Below, in pieces: positions 1-18,256 of a stretch of 18,256 bases of DNA; the stretch's first letter is position 1, and each line of letters opens with the position of its first letter. The notes under the pieces are model-generated. The model did not search any database. It was not told the origin of the DNA and saw nothing but the letters and a program-made list of their open reading frames with translations. The position numbers and the translations under genes were made by a program. This DNA is from a virus (Duplodnaviria > Heunggongvirae > Uroviricota > Caudoviricetes): positions 1 through 18,256 of the IMG/VR virus record IMGVR_UViG_2778261299_000001; one strand, given 5' to 3'.

Positions 1-13
1 CATTCCTATCAAT

Positions 14-790
14 TTGGAGGAATTACGCTCTTATAATAAAGAAGCTATGGAGTTAAAAGAAAAGATTAATAAATCAATGTTTAATCTTAGTGTCTTAGAA
101 GAAAAAGGACGTGATATTTTAGATAAAATGACACAACAAAATGTCGAAGCAGCAAAATATCTAGAAATGTGTGAGCAGGCTATTAGAGCATCGACATCTA
201 AAGGTTTAGCCGGTGCTTTTGAAATCAAGGCTAATAAATTAAATAATAGTATCCAACTATGGGTTTTGGGATTGGCAAGTGCACTGGCGACGGGGGGGTA
301 CGTGGGTTTTGAAAGGCTCAAGGTTTTATCTGATGTGCTAAACAATGCAAATCCAAATGCAGTAGTTATTGTTACTCAGTTACTTCTTTCAGTGTTCAGT
401 ATAGGAGCTCCGTTATGGTTTGCATGGCTCTCTACAAAACAAATAAATCAAAGATTTAAATTGGCAGAGGATTATGCTTTTAAGGCTTCAGTAGCGAAGG
501 CTTACGAAGGCTATCGAAATGAAGCAAGTAAGGTATCTAATGGAGAATTTGAAAGGCGTTTATTTGATTCGGCATTGAGTCGTCTCGAAGAAGCACCTTT
601 GCGCTTTGTGAAGGATGATGACCATGCAACCCCTTGGAATGAGTTGTTAAATTCAAAAGCATTCAATAAGTTCCTTGACGCTTCTGTTGAAAATGTGAAT
701 TTTGTTAAAGGGATTATTAGCAAGAAAACAGGTGGGGCGAGAATGGCTAGTAATGATTCAGCTATTATTCCAGAAAAAAAAGTTGAATGA
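14..790 (+). CDS. hypothetical two-transmembrane-helix protein; candidate accessory, defence or superinfection-exclusion effector; true start uncertain and possibly upstream of window
   Basis: ORF of 258 codons ending at TAA 788-790. The frame is open from position 2, so the listed TTG at 14 is only the first possible start; the first ATG is at 47. Translation shows a charged, helix-prone N-terminal part, two hydrophobic segments (LWVLGLASALATGGYVGF and AVVIVTQLLLSVFSIGAPLWFAWL) separated by a short polar loop, then a charged C-terminal tail. AT-rich codon usage unlike the phage backbone. No motif I can assign to a known family. Confidence 0.6.
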   Translation: MEELRSYNKEAMELKEKINKSMFNLSVLEEKGRDILDKMTQQNVEAAKYLEMCEQAIRASTSKGLAGAFEIKANKLNNSIQLWVLGLASALATGGYVGFERLKVLSDVLNNANPNAVVIVTQLLLSVFSIGAPLWFAWLSTKQINQRFKLAEDYAFKASVAKAYEGYRNEASKVSNGEFERRLFDSALSRLEEAPLRFVKDDDHATPWNELLNSKAFNKFLDASVENVNFVKGIISKKTGGARMASNDSAIIPEKKVE

Positions 791-873
791 CAGAAGGATA
801 ATAATTAAGGGATGTCAGTCAACATGGTAATTTCTTGGTGTTGATTGTTTTATTTATCAAAAACATTTTAAGT

Positions 874-907
874 TAGTCTGATCTTCGCGTTCGGTAGGAT
901 CAGACTA
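874..907. terminator. perfect 10-bp inverted repeat (tagtctgatc ... gatcagacta) with 14-nt loop between the convergent cargo gene and Q; possible bidirectional terminator
   Basis: Read directly: 874-883 is the exact reverse complement of 898-907. On the minus strand a U-rich run (UGUUUUUG) follows a few nt after the stem. There is no clean U-tract on the plus side, so the terminator call is tentative. Confidence 0.3.
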
Positions 908-947
908 CTAAATTAACGATATGATTTCATTGATTACGAATGGTTAA

Positions 948-2018
948 TTAAGTTGTAGGGATAGTAATCGAAAGATTACTATCTTCAATACCTAGTTTAT
1001 AAGGCTCAAACATAATTACTTTTTCTCCAAGCCACTCGTTAAGCTCTGTCATTCGTTTTTGTAGCGGGGTCAACTCATTGCGCACAAAGACTTTACTAGC
1101 TTTACCTGCATCTCCAAAACCGCCGATGTTCTGGGGAATTATCCCCATCATTTGCGGCGGTACGCGGTGTGCCGCCATCATGTCATCCCGACTCACGTTT
1201 TTGATGTTCAAAAACTCATCCTTCGCCGCCACCTCTGACAACGGGATGATCTGAAGCCCGTCCTTTTTGCCGTTAGGCGAGTACATAAACAGGTTGCGGA
1301 AGTTGCCAGGGCCTTTGGCGCTTTTCATCGCATTGCGGAGGTTGTTCACATCCTCCTGGTTCTGCGCGGCATCGGTCATGTACATGATGAAGCCTGCATG
1401 ACTGCCGTTAATGTAATACTTCCGGCGGAACAGCGTGGCGGACTCGTTGAGCAGGGCTGACGGAATGGCAGAAAGATAACCGGGCAGGCCGTAGATCTCC
1501 TGGTTGATGTCCGGTTCCATCAGATGAAAGATGCTGCCTTTCGTGAACTGATATGGCTGCGTGGTCATACCGTATTGCACAAACCAGTAGGTATCCAGGT
1601 CTAACCCGCGTCGGGTGTATTTTGCCAGGGCAGGTTCAAGGGCGATAACTTCACCGAAGCGGTTCGTGCGTTTCTCCAGGTAGGCGTTACCAAATACCAG
1701 ATAGTCCTGCACAAAACGTGAAAAAGCCTGCTGGCTGAGCAGCGGGTGAGGGATGTAGGTACTGGTCAGAATGTTGCATTTTACTGCAATCGGGGAGCTG
1801 TGATGCACGGCAGCGCGGAAGGTGCGTGCCAGTCCGTCAAAACTGACGGGTGGCTCATACCAGCGATCCGTCTGTACGCATTCCACATAGTCCAGCAGTT
1901 CGCGGCGGTCCAGTACAGGAATGGGATCACCAAAGCTGAAAGCTTCGGCTGAAGTTTGATTTTTATGCTGGCTCTGTTTCGTCGCCGCAGCGCGGTTTTT
2001 CTTACTCTTTCCCATCAA
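948..2018 (-). CDS. Q: phage portal (capsid portal vertex) protein, P2 gpQ-like
   Basis: 356-codon ORF on the minus strand, immediately downstream of and overlapping the large terminase gene (P stop and Q start overlap at 2015-2018), as in P2. Size close to P2 gpQ. The 3' ~100 nt are AT-rich. Confidence 0.85.
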   Translation of the reverse strand: MMGKSKKNRAAATKQSQHKNQTSAEAFSFGDPIPVLDRRELLDYVECVQTDRWYEPPVSFDGLARTFRAAVHHSSPIAVKCNILTSTYIPHPLLSQQAFSRFVQDYLVFGNAYLEKRTNRFGEVIALEPALAKYTRRGLDLDTYWFVQYGMTTQPYQFTKGSIFHLMEPDINQEIYGLPGYLSAIPSALLNESATLFRRKYYINGSHAGFIMYMTDAAQNQEDVNNLRNAMKSAKGPGNFRNLFMYSPNGKKDGLQIIPLSEVAAKDEFLNIKNVSRDDMMAAHRVPPQMMGIIPQNIGGFGDAGKASKVFVRNELTPLQKRMTELNEWLGEKVIMFEPYKLGIEDSNLSITIPTT

Positions 2019-12227: not shown

Positions 12228-13810
12228 GCACAAAATTTTATACCCTGCTGACGGATATTGGCGCGGCGAAACTTGCCAGCGCCGCCGCGCTCGGTGTGCC
12301 TTTAAAAATTACCCATATGGCAGTCGGCGATGGCGGCGGAATATTGCCAACGCCGGACGCAAAGCAGACAGCACTGGTAAATGAGAAACGCCGGGCTGCG
12401 CTGAATATGCTCTATATCGACCCGCAGAACAGCAGCCAGATTATTGCCGAACAGGTGATCCCTGAAAATGAGGGCGGTTGGTGGATCCGTGAAGTGGGCC
12501 TGTTTGATGAGTCCGGGGCATTGATTGCCGTGGGTAACTGCCCGGAAAGCTATAAGCCGCAACTGGCTGAAGGCAGCGGGCGTACCCAGACCGTGCGCAT
12601 GGTGCTGATTACCAGCAGCACGGACAATATCACCCTGAAAATCGACCCTGCCGTCGTGCTGGCAACCCGCAAGTATGTGGATGACAAGGTACTGGAGCTG
12701 AAGGTGTACGTGGATGACCTGATGGCAAAACATCTTATCGCACAGGACCCACATTCACAGTACGCGCCAAAAGCCAGCCCGACATTTAGCGGAACCCCCA
12801 AAGCGCCAACGCCAGCGGCGGGGAATAATACCACGCAGGTTGCGACCACTGCGTTTGTACAGGCGGCACTGACGGCCCTTATTAATGGTGCGCCAGCCAC
12901 GCTGGACACGTTGAAAGAAATAGCCGCAGCCATTAACAATGATCCGAATTTCAGTACCACCATTAACAATGCGCTGGCACTGAAAGCACCGTTGTCGAGT
13001 CCGGCACTCACCGGAACGCCAACAGCCCCCACGGCGGCGCAGTCGGTCAACAATACACAGATTGCCACTACGGCTTTTGTGAAATCGGCGATTGCAGGAA
13101 TGGTGGGTTCTGCACCTGCTGCACTGGATACACTGAACGAACTGGCGGCGGCACTGGGAAATGATCCGAACTTTGCCACGACAATGCTTAATGCGCTGGC
13201 AGGTAAACAACCGCTGGACAATACGCTTACCAATTTGAGTGGAAAGGATGTGGCTGGTCTTCTCGCATACCTTGGTTTGGGAGAAGGCTCAGCATTACCT
13301 GTTGGGGTGCCTGTTCCGTGGCCTTCAGCCACTCCGCCAACAGGCTGGCTGAAATGCAATGGTGCGGCTTTTTCTGCTGAAGAATACCCGGAACTGGCAA
13401 AGGCTTACCCGACAAATAAATTGCCTGATTTACGCGGTGAATTTATTCGTGGATGGGATGATGGGCGCGGGGTGGATGCGGGGCGAGCCTTGTTAAGTCT
13501 TCAGGATGACTCTTTTGAAGCTCACAGACATGAGTCCTTTTTTTACGCGGGTATTTCACGCAATGAAACACCATTAAAAAATCTTCCAAGTTCAGACGAG
13601 ATGCTGACTTTAAGTTCCACAACTAATGCCTTGTCCCCGGACAGTATTGATGCCACCAATTCGTTAATTGGTAATGATGATTACAACTGTCTGATTGAAG
13701 GAAATAAAAATAACAAACGAACGGCAACGGGGTTGAGTACCAGTATTGTCGGTGCAGCAGAGACACGCCCACGTAATATTTCATTTAATTACATTGTGAG
13801 GGCTGCATGA
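12224..13810 (+). CDS. H: tail fibre protein, P2 gpH-like, with conserved N-terminal part, internal repeats and a C-terminal collar-like receptor-binding tip in the current orientation
   Basis: 528-codon ORF. Two diverged copies of an ~55-aa motif in the middle. C-terminal segment (WLKCNGAAFSAEEYPELAKAYP..LPDLRGEFIRGWDDGRGVDAGR...H.H) resembles phage tail-collar domains. An invertase crossover site lies inside the gene at 13260-13285. Confidence 0.85.
   Translation: MSTKFYTLLTDIGAAKLASAAALGVPLKITHMAVGDGGGILPTPDAKQTALVNEKRRAALNMLYIDPQNSSQIIAEQVIPENEGGWWIREVGLFDESGALIAVGNCPESYKPQLAEGSGRTQTVRMVLITSSTDNITLKIDPAVVLATRKYVDDKVLELKVYVDDLMAKHLIAQDPHSQYAPKASPTFSGTPKAPTPAAGNNTTQVATTAFVQAALTALINGAPATLDTLKEIAAAINNDPNFSTTINNALALKAPLSSPALTGTPTAPTAAQSVNNTQIATTAFVKSAIAGMVGSAPAALDTLNELAAALGNDPNFATTMLNALAGKQPLDNTLTNLSGKDVAGLLAYLGLGEGSALPVGVPVPWPSATPPTGWLKCNGAAFSAEEYPELAKAYPTNKLPDLRGEFIRGWDDGRGVDAGRALLSLQDDSFEAHRHESFFYAGISRNETPLKNLPSSDEMLTLSSTTNALSPDSIDATNSLIGNDDYNCLIEGNKNNKRTATGLSTSIVGAAETRPRNISFNYIVRAA
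13260..13285. repeat. left 26-bp invertase crossover site (gix/hix-like), inside H at the constant/variable boundary
   Basis: TTCTCGCATACC-TT-GGTTTGGGAGAA is an imperfect palindrome of two 12-bp half-sites of the type TTCTC..AAACC around a central TT. Its right half is the exact reverse complement of the left half of the site at 14898-14923. Confidence 0.75.
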
Positions 13811-14415
13811 TGTATAACGCTATCTTAAATAATAAATTTATTGCCACAAAGGCAGGAGAGATTACCGTTTATAACTATGACAGTGAGACACGGGAGTATA
13901 TTTCTGCATCAATTGAATATCTTGCTGTGGGTGTCGGTATCCCCGCATATTCCTGTTTAGATGCTCCTGGCACACATAAGGCTGGTTATGCAATCTGCCG
14001 TTCTGCAGATTTTAACTCATGGGAATATGTGCCAGACCATCGCGGTGAAATCGTCTTTAGCACCGAAACAGGAGAATCAAAAGAAATCACAGCTCCGGGT
14101 GATTACCCTGATAATACAACCACTATCGCCCCGTTAACACCATACGATAAATGGGATGGTGAGAAATGGGTGACGGATACCGAGGCACAGCATAGCGCCG
14201 CAGTAGATGCAGCAGAAGCACAACGCCAGTCGCTGATTGATACTGCAATGGCTTCCATCAGTCTGATTCAACTGAAATTACAGGCCGGACGGAATCTGAC
14301 GCAGGCAGAAACCAGCCGACTTAACACGGTGCTGGATTACATTGACGCGGTGACGGCAACAGATACCAGCACCGCGCCTGATATTATTTGGCCTGTATTC
14401 CCTGAGACTGATTAA
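13807..14415 (+). CDS. G: tail fibre assembly chaperone (Tfa; P2 gpG / Mu U-like)
   Basis: 202-codon ORF overlapping the H stop (ATGA). C-terminus TDTSTAPDIIWPVFPETD closely resembles the conserved C-terminus of lambda Tfa as I recall it. Confidence 0.85.
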   Translation: MMYNAILNNKFIATKAGEITVYNYDSETREYISASIEYLAVGVGIPAYSCLDAPGTHKAGYAICRSADFNSWEYVPDHRGEIVFSTETGESKEITAPGDYPDNTTTIAPLTPYDKWDGEKWVTDTEAQHSAAVDAAEAQRQSLIDTAMASISLIQLKLQAGRNLTQAETSRLNTVLDYIDAVTATDTSTAPDIIWPVFPETD

Positions 14416-14644
14416 CCTCAATTAGTATTGGTTCGCCTTTCTCATTAATTGTTAGCTCCATGCCCTGAGGAATTTCTGTCATAGTAAAAAACCAATTGTC
14501 CTCCGGTAATTCAATAGCCCCGGTCACGTCATGAAGACCGGGGATTACTTCAGTCAAAGTAACTGGATTAAACAGGCGCACAATAAACCCTCCAGGAAAA
14601 AGCATTTGATGATGGTCTGCCGTCGTACATCTGGCAGCGGGCAT
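14384..14644 (-). CDS. possible alternative tail-fibre assembly chaperone (G'-like) or decayed remnant
   Basis: Only minus-strand ORF between the G stop and the alternative fibre-tip cassette. At 86 codons or fewer it is short, none of its candidate ATGs has a convincing ribosome-binding site, and it lacks the Tfa C-terminal motif seen in G. Confidence 0.3.
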   Translation of the reverse strand: MPAARCTTADHHQMLFPGGFIVRLFNPVTLTEVIPGLHDVTGAIELPEDNWFFTMTEIPQGMELTINEKGEPILIEVNQSQGIQAK

Positions 14645-14897
14645 AAAAGCCGGTATTTGTTACCTGATCATCCACGATCATTGAAACGTGAACATTATTA
14701 GGTGTGCTCTCGTAATCCGTTCTTATTCTTTCCGCGATACTGATAAAACGTGAAAGTTTAGGCAGTGCAATTGGGTAAACAACTTTAGCCAGTCCATTAT
14801 CATTAGATCCACCGGTTCCAAATACTTCTATTGCACCATCTGACCAGCGTATCCATGCACCATTGGCATTAGCTCCTCGCTGAATGACATATCTGGC
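14568..14897 (-). CDS. promoterless alternative tail-fibre C-terminal cassette (H'v); expressed only after inversion, as an in-frame fusion to the constant part of H
   Basis: The minus-strand frame runs through the right crossover site encoding GLGE, the same residues and frame as LGLGE at the left site in H. After inversion H would continue as ...GLGEARYVIQRGANANGAWIRW... for about 108 codons to the stop at 14568-14570. Confidence 0.65.
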   Translation of the reverse strand, partial: ARYVIQRGANANGAWIRWSDGAIEVFGTGGSNDNGLAKVVYPIALPKLSRFISIAERIRTDYESTPNNVHVSMIVDDQVTNTGFYARCQMYDGRPSSNAFSWRVYCAPV

Positions 14898-14923
14898 TTC
14901 TCCCAAACCAACGTTTATGAAAA
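14898..14923. repeat. right 26-bp invertase crossover site (gix/hix-like), just upstream of the invertase gene
   Basis: TTCTCCCAAACC-AA-CGTTTATGAAAA. The left half-site is an exact 12/12 reverse-complement match to 13274-13285, and the central dinucleotide is inverted relative to the left site. Confidence 0.75.
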
Positions 14924-14978
14924 TGCAGAGATAATGGCTAACTGGCATCATCCACGGTTTTTATTCAGGGGATTGATC

Positions 14979-15545
14979 ATGCTTATTGGCTATGTACGCG
15001 TGTCAACAAATGACCAGAACACCGATTTGCAACGTAATGCACTGAACTGCGCGGGATGTGAGCGGATTTTTGAGGATAAAATCAGTGGCACTAAGTCCGA
15101 CAGACCGGGGCTTAAAAAACTGTTCAGGACACTATCGGCAGGAGACACTCTGGTTGTCTGGAAGCTGGACAGGTTGGGGCGCAGTATGCGGCATCTTGTT
15201 ACGCTGATAGAAGAGTTGCGTCAGCGTGGCGTGAATTTCCGAAGCCTGACTGACAGTATTGATACCAGCACCCCAATGGGCCGTTTCTTTTTTCATGTCA
15301 TGGGGGCCCTGGCTGAAATGGAACGCGAACTGATAGTTGAACGTACCATGGCAGGGCTGGCTGCAGCTCGTGCCAAAGGCAGAGTAGGTGGACGCCGTCC
15401 TAAGTTGACCACCGAACAGTGGGCACAGATTGGGCGTTTACTCGAGGCCGGAGAATCAAGACAGCGTATTGCACTGATTTTTGATGTAGGCGTTTCTACC
15501 ATTTATAGAAAATTTCCGGCAAATAAGAGCAATGAATCCCCCTGA
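14979..15545 (+). CDS. serine-recombinase DNA invertase of the Gin/Hin/Pin/Cin family
   Basis: ATG at 14979 with AGGGGA 7 nt upstream. N-terminus MLIGYVRVSTNDQNTDLQ carries the catalytic serine motif of this family. Near-colinear with e14 Pin, Mu Gin and Hin as I recall them, including the C-terminal helix-turn-helix (GVSTIYRKF). Confidence 0.9.
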   Translation: MLIGYVRVSTNDQNTDLQRNALNCAGCERIFEDKISGTKSDRPGLKKLFRTLSAGDTLVVWKLDRLGRSMRHLVTLIEELRQRGVNFRSLTDSIDTSTPMGRFFFHVMGALAEMERELIVERTMAGLAAARAKGRVGGRRPKLTTEQWAQIGRLLEAGESRQRIALIFDVGVSTIYRKFPANKSNESP

Positions 15546-15593
15546 ATCAGCATTATTTTGATTATCCCTGCAAGTAGACAAATACCGTCATTT

Positions 15594-15611
15594 TGTGTGA
15601 ATAACGACACA
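15594..15611. promoter_or_regulatory. TGT-N12-ACA dyad (Ogr-type box) of the late promoter upstream of FI
   Basis: Read directly: TGT 15594-15596, 12 nt, ACA 15609-15611. A -10-like CATAGG lies about 40 nt downstream; AGGAGG is 9 nt before the FI start at 15688. Confidence 0.6.
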
Positions 15612-15687
15612 ACTGCGCTTAGCTGTTTGTCAGGCACAATCACTTCAACATAGGGCGAAGCCTAATCCAATCAGGAGGTTCGCCACT

Positions 15688-16860
15688 ATGGCTCAGGATT
15701 ACCACCACGGGGTGCGCGTTGTTGAAGTCAACGAAGGCACCCGATCTATTACCACGGTGAGCACCGCCATCGTGGGTATGGTCTGCACGGGCGATGATGC
15801 CGATGCAAAAATGTTTCCTCTTAATAAACCCGTGCTGATCACTGATGTGCTGACTGCCAGCGGTAAAGCGGGTGAGTCAGGTACTCTGGCCCGTTCGCTG
15901 GATGCCATCGCTGACCAGGCAAAACCCGTGACCATTGTTGTGCGTGTGCCGCAGGGTGAAACGGAAGACGAAACCACGACCAATATCATCGGCGCAGTGA
16001 CTGCTGAAGGTAAAAAAACAGGTATGAAAGCCCTGTTATCTGCCCAGTCACAGCTCGGCGTTAAACCGCGCATTCTCGGCGTGCCAGGCCACGACACCAA
16101 GGCGGTAGCTACTGAGTTGCTGAGCGTGGCGCAAAGCCTGCGTGGATTTGCTTACCTGTCAGCGTATGGCTGCAAGACAGTGCAGGAGGCGATCACTTAC
16201 CGCGAAAACTTCAGCCAGCGCGAAGGGATGCTGATCTGGCCTGACTTTACTGGCTGGGACACGGTGCTGAATGCCGAAGCAACGGCATATGCCACCGCCC
16301 GTGCGCTTGGTCTGCGCGCCAAAATTGACGAGCAGACCGGATGGCACAAAAGCCTGTCCAACGTGGGCGTGAACGGTGTCACCGGAATTTCTGCAGATGT
16401 GTTCTGGGATCTGCAGGACCCGGCAACCGATGCAGGTCTGCTGAACCAGAACGACGTCACCACGCTTGTGCGTAAAGACGGTTTCCGCTTCTGGGGTTCC
16501 CGCTGCCTGAGTGATGACCCGCTCTTTGCCTTCGAAAACTACACCCGCACGGCGCAGGTGCTGATGGACACGATGGCAGAAGCACACATGTGGGCGGTGG
16601 ATAAACCGCTTAACCCGTCGCTGGCCCGCGACATTATCGAAGGTATCCGCGCCAAAATGCGCAGCCTGGTCAGTCAGGGCTATCTCATTGGTGGTGATTG
16701 CTGGCTGGATGAGTCGGTGAACGACAAAGACACGCTGAAAGCCGGAAAACTCACCATCGACTACGACTACACGCCAGTGCCGCCACTTGAAAACCTGATG
16801 CTGCGTCAGCGCATCACCGATCAGTACCTGGTGAATTTCGCCAGCCAGGTCAGCGCGTAA
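15688..16860 (+). CDS. FI: contractile tail sheath protein, P2 gpFI-like
   Basis: 390-codon ORF with strong ribosome-binding site, first gene after the late promoter box. Size and position match P2 FI. Confidence 0.9.
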
Positions 16861-16869
16861 GGGGACAAC

Positions 16870-17385
16870 ATGGCTTTACCACGCAAATTAAAACACCTGA
16901 ACCTGTTTAACGACGGGAACAACTGGCAGGGGATCGTTGAGTCGCTGACGCTGCCGAAATTTACCCGCAAATATGAGAAGTATCGCGGCGGCGGAATGCC
17001 GGGTGCGGTGGATGTGGATCTGGGGCTTGATGACAGTGCGCTGGACACAGAATTTTCCATTGGTGGTACTGAATTGCTGCTGTTTAAACAGATGGGTAAA
17101 GCCACGGTGGATGGCATCCAGCTGCGCTTTACCGGCTCTATTCAGCGTGACGATACCGGGGAAGTGCAGGCCGTGGAGCTTGTCGTGCGTGGACGTCACA
17201 AAGAAGTGGATTCCGGCGAGTGGAAGACGGGCGAAAGCAACACCACCAAAGTGACCAGTACCAACAGCTACGCGAAGCTGACCATCAATGGTGAGGTGCT
17301 CTATGAAGTGGACCTTATCAACATGGTGGAAATTGTGGACGGTGTGGACCTGATGGAAGCGCACCGCAACGCCCTCGGCCTCTGA
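16870..17385 (+). CDS. FII: tail tube protein, P2 gpFII-like
   Basis: 171-codon ORF directly after the sheath gene; size matches P2 FII. Confidence 0.85.
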   Translation: MALPRKLKHLNLFNDGNNWQGIVESLTLPKFTRKYEKYRGGGMPGAVDVDLGLDDSALDTEFSIGGTELLLFKQMGKATVDGIQLRFTGSIQRDDTGEVQAVELVVRGRHKEVDSGEWKTGESNTTKVTSTNSYAKLTINGEVLYEVDLINMVEIVDGVDLMEAHRNALGL

Positions 17386-17396
17386 TATATCTGAAC

Positions 17397-17414
17397 GGCG
17401 CGGGATACCGCGCC
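17397..17414 (+). terminator. GC-rich hairpin (GGCGCGG-gata-CCGCGCC) between tube gene and E; possible attenuator rather than full terminator
   Basis: Perfect 7-bp GC stem with 4-nt loop, 12 nt after the FII stop. No U-tract follows, so an intrinsic-terminator call is weak. Confidence 0.25.
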
Positions 17415-17439
17415 AGAACCCAATTGACAGGACAGCAAA

Positions 17440-17742
17440 ATGAGCGATAAGCAGACTGAAAAGACCATTCAACTGGATACCCCCATCAAGCGCGGTAAAA
17501 CAGAAATCACCGAAATTGTGCTGCGTAAACCGCAGTCCGGTGCGCTGCGCGGTACACGCCTGCAGGCCATTATGGATATGGATGTGAACGCGATGATGAC
17601 CGTGATCCCCCGCATCTCCAGTCCGGCACTGACTGCACAGGAAATTGCAGAGATGGACCCGGCAGATCTCACTGCCATGTCGGTTGAGGTTGTCACTTTT
17701 TTGTTGAAGAAGTCGGTGCTTGCCGGTTTACCGACAGCCTGA
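17440..17742 (+). CDS. E: tail assembly chaperone, P2 gpE-like (zero-frame product)
   Basis: 100-codon ORF after the tube gene that contains the T6G slippery site near its 3' end. Confidence 0.75.
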   Translation: MSDKQTEKTIQLDTPIKRGKTEITEIVLRKPQSGALRGTRLQAIMDMDVNAMMTVIPRISSPALTAQEIAEMDPADLTAMSVEVVTFLLKKSVLAGLPTA

Positions 17743-17876
17743 CGGTTGACGATCTGGTGGCAGATATCGCCACCATTTTTCACTGGCCGCCATCCGTTAC
17801 TGACGTTATGCCGCTGACCGAAGTGCTGGAATGGCGGTATAAAGCGATTCAGAGAAGCGGGGCCAACGATGAGTGA
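17440..17876 (+). CDS. E+E' frameshift fusion product (tail assembly chaperone extended form)
   Basis: Zero frame to the slippery site, then -1 frame (GTT GAA GAA GTC ...) for 57 codons to TGA 17874-17876, overlapping the T start at 17869. Analogous to P2 E/E' and lambda G/GT. Confidence 0.6.
17697..17703 (+). promoter_or_regulatory. programmed -1 ribosomal frameshift slippery heptamer T TTT TTG (E/E')
   Basis: TTTTTTG read directly at 17697-17703, in the E frame as ACT TTT TTG. The -1 frame is open from here to TGA at 17874-17876. Confidence 0.65.
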
Positions 17877-18204
17877 TAACAACCTGCGTCTGCGGGTCAT
17901 TCTTAATGCGGTTGACAAGCTCACCCGCCCATTTCGATCTGCGCAGGCCAGTTCAAGAGAACTGGCTGCTGCTGTCAAAAAATCCCGCGATGCAATAAAG
18001 CAGCTTGATCAGGCCGGGAGCAGTCTGGACAGCTTCCGAAAGCTGCAGGCAGAAAATCAGAAATTAGGCGACAGGCTGAACTATGCCCGCCAGCGTGCAA
18101 ATTTGCTCAGTCAGGAACTGGGAGCGATGGGGCCGCCTTCGCAACGTCAGGTTGTTGCTCTGGGCCGTCAACGGCTGGCTGTGTGTGTCACGAAGGAGAA
18201 CTGA
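17869..18204 (+). CDS. T: tail tape measure protein N-terminal portion (P2 gpT-like); reading frame ends prematurely at 111 codons
   Basis: Starts at ATG overlapping the E' stop, with a coiled-coil-like N-terminus in the T position. Tape measures in this family are several hundred residues, but here TGA at 18202 is followed by TAG and all three frames are closed shortly afterwards. Confidence 0.6.
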   Translation: MSDNNLRLRVILNAVDKLTRPFRSAQASSRELAAAVKKSRDAIKQLDQAGSSLDSFRKLQAENQKLGDRLNYARQRANLLSQELGAMGPPSQRQVVALGRQRLAVCVTKEN

Positions 18205-18256
18205 TAGCGGCAATATGAAAATTGCAGCATAAGTTATCCATGCTCTGAGGTGGGTG

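Follow-up and report, generated by a model that had tools for sequence, protein, structure and literature searches.

What brings the tail tape-measure gene T of a P2-like prophage to a stop after 111 codons, at the very edge of the contig that carries it? We addressed this question for a stretch of 18,256 nt (hereafter, the window), which is the complete draft contig NOMS01000068.1 (assembly GCA_002518695.1; 18,256 bp). An earlier note on this DNA had proposed that T is interrupted by an inserted element or lies at the edge of a deletion that truncates the prophage. The former option was borne out by comparison with related genomes: the element found is a group II intron, in the sense orientation, at a mimic of its home site.

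Prophage setting and the truncated gene T

The window contains the late-gene half of a P2-like prophage, with genes for portal, terminase, capsid, lysis, baseplate, tail fiber (with an invertible segment), sheath, tube, and gpE/E′, followed by the start of T. The order of genes leading to the truncated open reading frame (ORF), namely, sheath, tube, E (Phage_TAC_7), and GpE, places this ORF in the position of T in P2-like phages. A TTTTTTG slippery heptamer is present at 17697-17703, near the end of gpE (17440-17742) and upstream of a GpE-family ORF (17757-17876), the usual arrangement for the -1 frameshift that generates the E and E+E′ products in P2.

Two other regions of the window deserve mention. 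The invertible tail-fiber region (13807-15545) comprises a forward tail-fiber assembly gene (13807-14415), a serine invertase (Resolvase and HTH_7 domains; 14934-15545), and, on the minus strand at 14387-14951, an alternative tail-fiber C-terminus and assembly fragments in reverse orientation. Logan contig SRR3977091_477, which overlaps the window, starts at position 14993, just inside the invertase gene, a start that might reflect a branching of the graph at the crossover site of the inversion. At the left end, positions 1-947 are AT-rich (GC content of 0.36 vs 0.545 elsewhere in the window), adjoin the portal gene Q, and carry the C-terminal 258 codons of a ~433-aa protein of no assigned function that is cut by the contig end. 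This protein matches phrog_34659 (profile positions 175-423 of 433), with no Pfam family above the cut-off and no PADLOC match, and megablast of window positions 1-1000 yielded no match among 5,426 complete Escherichia coli genomes. P2-like phages carry variable cargo beside portal gene Q.

The features at the right end of the window are as follows:

17869-18204, plus strand: apparent ORF of 111 aa with an ATG start, consisting of T residues 1-105, six intron-encoded residues (CVTKEN), and a stop
17869-18182, plus strand: T exon 1, 314 nt, codons 1-104 plus two bases of codon 105
18175-18182, plus strand: target-site mimic CTGGCTGT, the last six bases of which (GGCTGT, 18177-18182) are the intron-binding site IBS1
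18183-18256, plus strand: 5′ part of the intron (group II, E.c.I3-type, 1824 nt in full), of which nt 1-74 are present, beginning with GTGTG
18202-18207, plus strand: TGA-TAG in the T frame (intron nt 20-25), terminating the apparent 111-codon ORF

Translation of the three forward frames from 18151 confirmed the description in the earlier note: the T frame, which opens at 17869, meets TGA (18202-18204) and TAG (18205-18207), and the other two frames are closed before 18256. Exon 1 is 100% identical over its 314 nt to the start of T in E. coli EC931, where the gene is intact and encodes 1025 aa; it shows 99.7% identity to T of phage 500465-1 and matches phrog_28, the tail length tape measure protein family. 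Against an intact homolog of 1025 aa, 111 codons indeed represent a truncated tape measure. The exact 111-aa product was called on just three contigs in an index of 153 billion genes.

Location of the breakpoint

Megablast of the segment 17440-18256 against 50,697 phage records and the 5,426 complete E. coli genomes produced many matches, with identity up to 100%, all of which end at query position 743, that is, window position 18182. Alignment to intact T, one of the tests suggested at the outset, located the breakpoint at 18182/18183, 19 nt upstream of the stop codon. With a slash denoting the breakpoint here and below, intact T reads ...GGCTGGCTGT/TCAGCGCCTGGAAG, and the window reads ...GGCTGGCTGT/GTGTGTCACGAAGG. 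Because the break precedes the stop codon by 19 nt, the last six residues of the apparent ORF (CVTKEN) are foreign to T. The change of sequence perceived at the right edge in the earlier note is real, but its true point is ~20 nt upstream of where the note put it. The drop in GC content reported there is numerically true (0.551 for 17869-18182, 0.459 for 18183-18256, and 0.436 for the last 55 nt) but is not significant alone, with 15% of all 74-nt segments of the contig being equally or more GC-poor. The break is located by homology, not by composition. A sequencing frameshift, already regarded as the less likely cause, is excluded because homology changes completely at 18183.

Identity of the inserted element

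The final 82 nt of the window (18175-18256) match the E. coli EC2 chromosome and plasmid pSCU-106 with 100% identity. In EC2, the annotation of this region consists of a broken IS66-family tnpC gene followed by ltrA, “group II intron reverse transcriptase/maturase.” The tnpC exons of EC2 rejoin as GRKNWLF/FGSDHGG, and because the reading frame is restored in this manner, the insert can be delimited as 1824 nt, from GTGTG to ...CGAC. Window positions 18183-18256 correspond base for base to nt 1-74 of this intron, both in the EC2 copy (L001) and in a metagenome contig that carries a complete copy (L003).

Several hallmarks of a group II intron were detected in this element. The GUGYG and AY boundaries are represented by GTGTG at 18183-18187 and by the ...CTCGAC ends of the L001 and L003 copies. 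In the same two copies, the ribozyme core was recognized by RF01999 (group-II-D1D4-2; 93.4 bits, gathering score 36) and domains V and VI by RF00029 (Intron_gpII; 57.1 bits, gathering score 40). The Rfam search of the window itself gave no match because the first modeled element begins approximately at the last intron base present. The intron-encoded protein (IEP) is a 410-aa ORF that contains RVT_1 (E-value = 2e-41) and GIIM (E-value = 1.5e-14) domains and a YADD motif; in the domain search of this ORF, no endonuclease (HNH/En) domain was detected.

The annotation of this ORF differs among copies. In L003, it is intact, with 410 aa starting from an ATG at intron nt 512. RefSeq denotes it a pseudogene “missing N-terminus” in the copies from E. 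coli EC2, E02, VG48B2, and 536 (L001, L007, L008, and L009, respectively) and, in those copies, also calls a frameshifted “hypothetical protein” on the opposite strand. Both kinds of call look like annotation artefacts.

The 82-nt match to features annotated as “tnpC: IS66 family transposase” could be taken to indicate that an IS66-family insertion sequence landed in T. We assign this reading a negligible probability. The annotation reflects the truncated tnpC exons that flank the intron in the reference copies; the matching bases begin at the GTGTG of the intron 5′ end, inside tnpC and ~1.4 kb away from the end of the IS; and the IS66 sequence upstream of position -8 is absent from the window. 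Neither a terminal inverted repeat at the junction nor a transposase gene belonging to the insert was found, the junction being the 5′ end of the intron, which is internal to IS66. Comparison with both classes of elements, as proposed in the earlier note, thus yields a group II intron and not an IS.

The intron shares 98.0% identity over 1824 nt with the single copy in E. coli 536. It is present in 167 of the 5,426 complete E. coli genomes, mostly on plasmids, with a full-length copy in 56 of these, and intron fragments are found on the E24377A plasmid and on Shigella virulence plasmids. A survey of Enterobacteriales described the same distribution for E.c.I3, with a unique copy in 536 and fragments on the E24377A plasmid and Shigella virulence plasmids, and stated that E.c.I3 targets IS679, an IS66-family element (Leclercq and Cordaux 2012; PMC3522654). 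Given the 98.0% identity to the 536 copy, the match to the published distribution, and the naming rule of the intron database, under which copies more than 95% identical share a name (PMC3552965), we identify the element inserted in T, on sequence grounds, as the E.c.I3 group II intron (Zimmerly database name).

Target site and EBS1-IBS1 pairing

The intron in T does not occupy the usual home of E.c.I3, the tnpC gene of IS679/IS66, but resides in a phage gene. The T copy is therefore an ectopic copy of E.c.I3, which leaves the identity of the element unaffected. The insertion sites compared here are the following:

IS66 home site (EC2): aaCTGGCTGT/TCttcgg
Second IS66 type: aaCTGGaTGT/TCgcggg
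Intergenic site, plasmid p2 of strain E02: atTGGCTtT/TTgacg
T site: ggCTGGCTGT/TCagcgc
tssK antisense site: gaCTGGCTGT/TCgtcgc

The 8 nt directly 5′ of the intron in T are also found directly 5′ of it in the IS66 tnpC home site (L001) and in the tssK site. Over positions -8 to +2, the T site matches the home site at 10 of 10 positions (CTGGCTGT/TC, with +1 and +2 being TC in intact T), and upstream of -8, the two sites differ. A match of this kind has a probability of about 1e-6 at any one position, and only about ten such 10-mers are to be expected in a genome.

Nucleotides 268-273 of the intron (ACAGCC) pair perfectly with the exon sequence GGCTGT, and this region is largely unpaired in the minimum free energy fold of domain I. 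Furthermore, the two elements covary: exons that end in ...GGCTGC, in 536 and HB37, are accompanied by GCAGCC in the intron, and exons that end in ...GGCTGT by ACAGCC, such that in the 536 and HB37 copies the change of T to C at position -1 occurs together with a change of A to G at intron nt 268. Being complementary to GGCTGT, with the support of this compensatory change, ACAGCC can be assigned as the exon-binding site EBS1. For the EBS2-IBS2 pairing, no convincing complement to the -14 to -9 region of the targets was found within intron nt 1-340, and none of several candidate loops was consistent with the -22 to -9 regions of the five target sites.

Copies with intact boundaries are present at several sites, including IS66 variants, the intergenic site on the E02 plasmid, T, and tssK, and their sequences imply that the intron has probably been mobile in the past. 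The E02 copy (1501-3324 of L007, plasmid p2) is 100% identical and lies between a RelE/ParE toxin-antitoxin pair and the replication initiator gene; this third non-IS66 site contains one IBS1 mismatch.

The contig end

The window holds 74 bases of the intron. The Logan contig SRR3977091_477, which is identical to window positions 14993-18209, holds 27. With the addition of three shared upstream nucleotides, these numbers become 77 and 30, which, by our own arithmetic, fit breaks in de Bruijn graphs at k = 77 and at k-1 = 30 (k = 31). The value k = 77 is a usual one for SPAdes, and both contig ends are accounted for with no free parameter. A second intron copy in the source genome is accordingly expected to be preceded by xTGT, where x is not C, as in the IS66 site CTGGATGT/ of strain VG48B2 (L008). 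An assembly break caused by a repeat accounts for the right edge of the window: at least one further copy of the intron is present in the genome and blocked the short-read assembler, so that the contig ends after 74 nt of intron sequence. Hence, T seems to stop after 111 codons because the contig ends inside the intron, and most probably, the gene continues on another contig.

The junction lies at the very end of a draft contig, and no complete genome carries it, so the possibility has to be considered that it is an artefact of assembly or sequencing, that is, a chimeric contig end that joins T to an unrelated repeat. This appears highly improbable. T meets the intron at precisely the first intron base, directly behind a perfect IBS1 and a 10-nt mimic of the home site; a graph error requires a shared k-mer, and only 8 nt are shared. 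Moreover, the same junction is present in contigs from NCBI, Logan, and an ENA metagenome, the last with a different T allele.

Specifically, the 5′ junction was recovered from three data sets: NCBI (NOMS01000068.1), Logan (SRR3977091_477), and the ENA metagenome contig L003, which differs from the window by one single-nucleotide polymorphism (SNP) in T. Exact-pattern scans detected this junction once in metagenomes and not in GTDB species-representative genomes or IMG/VR, and it is absent from the complete E. coli genomes. The 3′ junction (intron end followed by T exon 2) was likewise absent from GTDB species representatives and IMG/VR in exact-pattern scans. A search with the predicted 3′-junction peptide, RESVTYGSVSSRGVKFSPADSTQ/RLEERQ..., returned no protein with an intron-derived extension, although long T fragments may hide inside 90% clusters.

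A 351-bp contig from another E. coli assembly (AASIIZ020000116.1; P0122/L014), which starts 2 nt into exon 2, was considered as a second intron-broken T. It was rejected because its first difference from the other T allele, at nt 56, is what a branch at k = 55 between two alleles of T would produce.

The tssK junction

L003 (ERZ773208; metagenome; 3,811 bp; 3.4x coverage) is the only contig found that crosses the whole intron from T. It contains T exon 1 followed by the complete intron, and past the last base of the intron, it continues not into T exon 2 but into antisense tssK of a B2-type type VI secretion cluster. The tssK features are as follows:

L003 1-1652, minus strand: tssK part of the junction
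L004 2990-3010: intact tssK site, gaCTGGCTGT/TCgtcgcc

The same 10-nt core is present at the site in tssK, which encodes a type VI secretion baseplate component, making this site a second ectopic target. The tssK-intron junction is absent from the complete E. coli genomes; its sequence in L003 shows that a tssK insertion exists somewhere in the sample from which this contig was assembled. L003 itself reflects either a walk of the assembler from one intron copy to another, a likely event given a 1.8-kb repeat and 3.4x coverage, or recombination between two copies.

The latter option suggests a different outcome for the prophage, in which the intron entered T but subsequent recombination with another copy, for example, that in tssK, unlinked exon 1 from exon 2, so that the prophage is truncated or split. 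L003 joins T exon 1 and the complete intron to antisense tssK exactly at the intron 3′ end, ectopic recombination is known to occur between copies of group II introns (PMC3522654), and no T 3′ junction was found in GTDB representatives, IMG/VR, or the junction-peptide search. We nevertheless consider this scenario unlikely. Short reads cannot bridge a 1.8-kb repeat, and for a metagenome contig with 3.4x coverage, mis-joining of flanks is the expected assembly error. In genomes of the B2 group, tssK (at 0.255 Mb in UTI89) and the prophage with the T region (at 0.94 Mb in CFT073) are ~680 kb apart; if the source is arranged likewise, both copies are on the same strand, and the L003 junction could have arisen only through a large tandem duplication or through loss of essential DNA, which would be lethal. 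The 77/30 arithmetic implies that the 8-nt CTGGCTGT flank is shared by no further copy in the source genome, which also speaks against the presence there of a tssK copy or of a reciprocal junction.

Proposed history of the insertion

We favor, with a probability of about 0.9, the scenario in which an E.c.I3-type intron retrotransposed from tnpC of an IS679/IS66 element into the sense strand of the prophage T gene at 18182/18183, with the contig break as a consequence. Under this scenario, a mobile intron would have moved out of tnpC, where it normally resides in IS679/IS66 elements, and inserted between 18182 and 18183 by reverse splicing and reverse transcription (retrotransposition). The choice of the site would have been dictated by the perfect IBS1 (GGCTGT) for EBS1 (ACAGCC) together with the 10-nt home core CTGGCTGT/TC, in which the conserved T at +1 is probably also part of the DNA site used in reverse splicing. 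Comparison at the nucleotide level shows what the element is, where exactly it joins T, that the target mimics the home site, that EBS1 pairs and covaries with IBS1, and that the contig ends inside the intron.

The subsequent steps concern expression. T exon 2 (TCAGCGCCTGGAAG) would follow the intron on another contig. Because the intron is on the same strand as T, it would be co-transcribed with the late operon and could, in principle, splice out. Splicing from the late transcript would restore T, with ligated exons that would read ...GGCTGGCTGT/TCAGCGCC..., and unspliced mRNA would yield only the 111-aa stub.

Comparison with known introns

The T copy shares with E.c.I3 the 98.0% identity to the 536 copy, the distribution, and the IS679/IS66 tnpC home of the other copies. 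It differs from the usual copies in its location, the tape-measure gene of a P2-like prophage instead of IS679/IS66, and belongs to a subvariant with ACAGCC as EBS1, compared to GCAGCC in the 536 copy. According to the work cited in PMC3522654 (its references 35-37), ectopic insertion guided by IBS motifs is known behavior of bacterial group II introns. Ectopic retrotransposition of Ll.LtrB and RmInt1 has in common with the T case insertion away from home at sites that keep the IBS motifs, mainly IBS1 and the first base of exon 2, and the IEP of RmInt1, like that of the intron in T, lacks an endonuclease domain. The Ll.LtrB and RmInt1 events were demonstrated experimentally, whereas the event in T is deduced from sequence.

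Introns in prophage tape-measure genes have been described in the Bacillus cereus group (Tourasse and Kolsto 2008; PMC2504315). They belong to group I and spread with the help of homing endonucleases, whereas the intron in T belongs to group II. No group II introns were encountered in B. cereus-group prophages in that survey, whose authors commented that phages were not known to harbor them (PMC2504315). In our searches, the whole intron had no match among the 50,697 INPHARED phage records, and its 5′ end had none in 2.9 million IMG/VR contigs. Thus, the element (E.c.I3) and the process (ectopic retrotransposition guided by IBS1) are known, and the location in T is new.

Biological significance

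For annotation, these findings mean that the 111-codon T should be read as the first exon of a gene split by an intron, cut off where a repeat ended the contig, and not as the product of a decayed prophage or a frameshift. The locus is a natural case, mapped precisely, in which an IS-homing group II intron has inserted ectopically into a structural gene of a phage, and it adds to the rare cases of such introns in phage genes. It also defines the minimal target accepted by this intron, namely, IBS1 plus CTGGCTGT/TC, with the compensatory change offered as proof of EBS1.

The consequences for the phage depend on splicing. If the intron does not splice, the insertion would amount to a one-step inactivation of the prophage tail. 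Alternatively, the intron might be spliced efficiently from the P2 late transcript, so that a full-length tape measure and infectious particles would still be made by a viable temperate phage that harbors an active group II intron in a structural gene; we put this forward only tentatively, as a rather doubtful prospect. If it is true, the one-SNP difference between the T alleles of the window and L003 would reflect either phage spread or repeated hits on the same site, and an enterobacterial phage would be a vehicle that spreads E.c.I3 between hosts.
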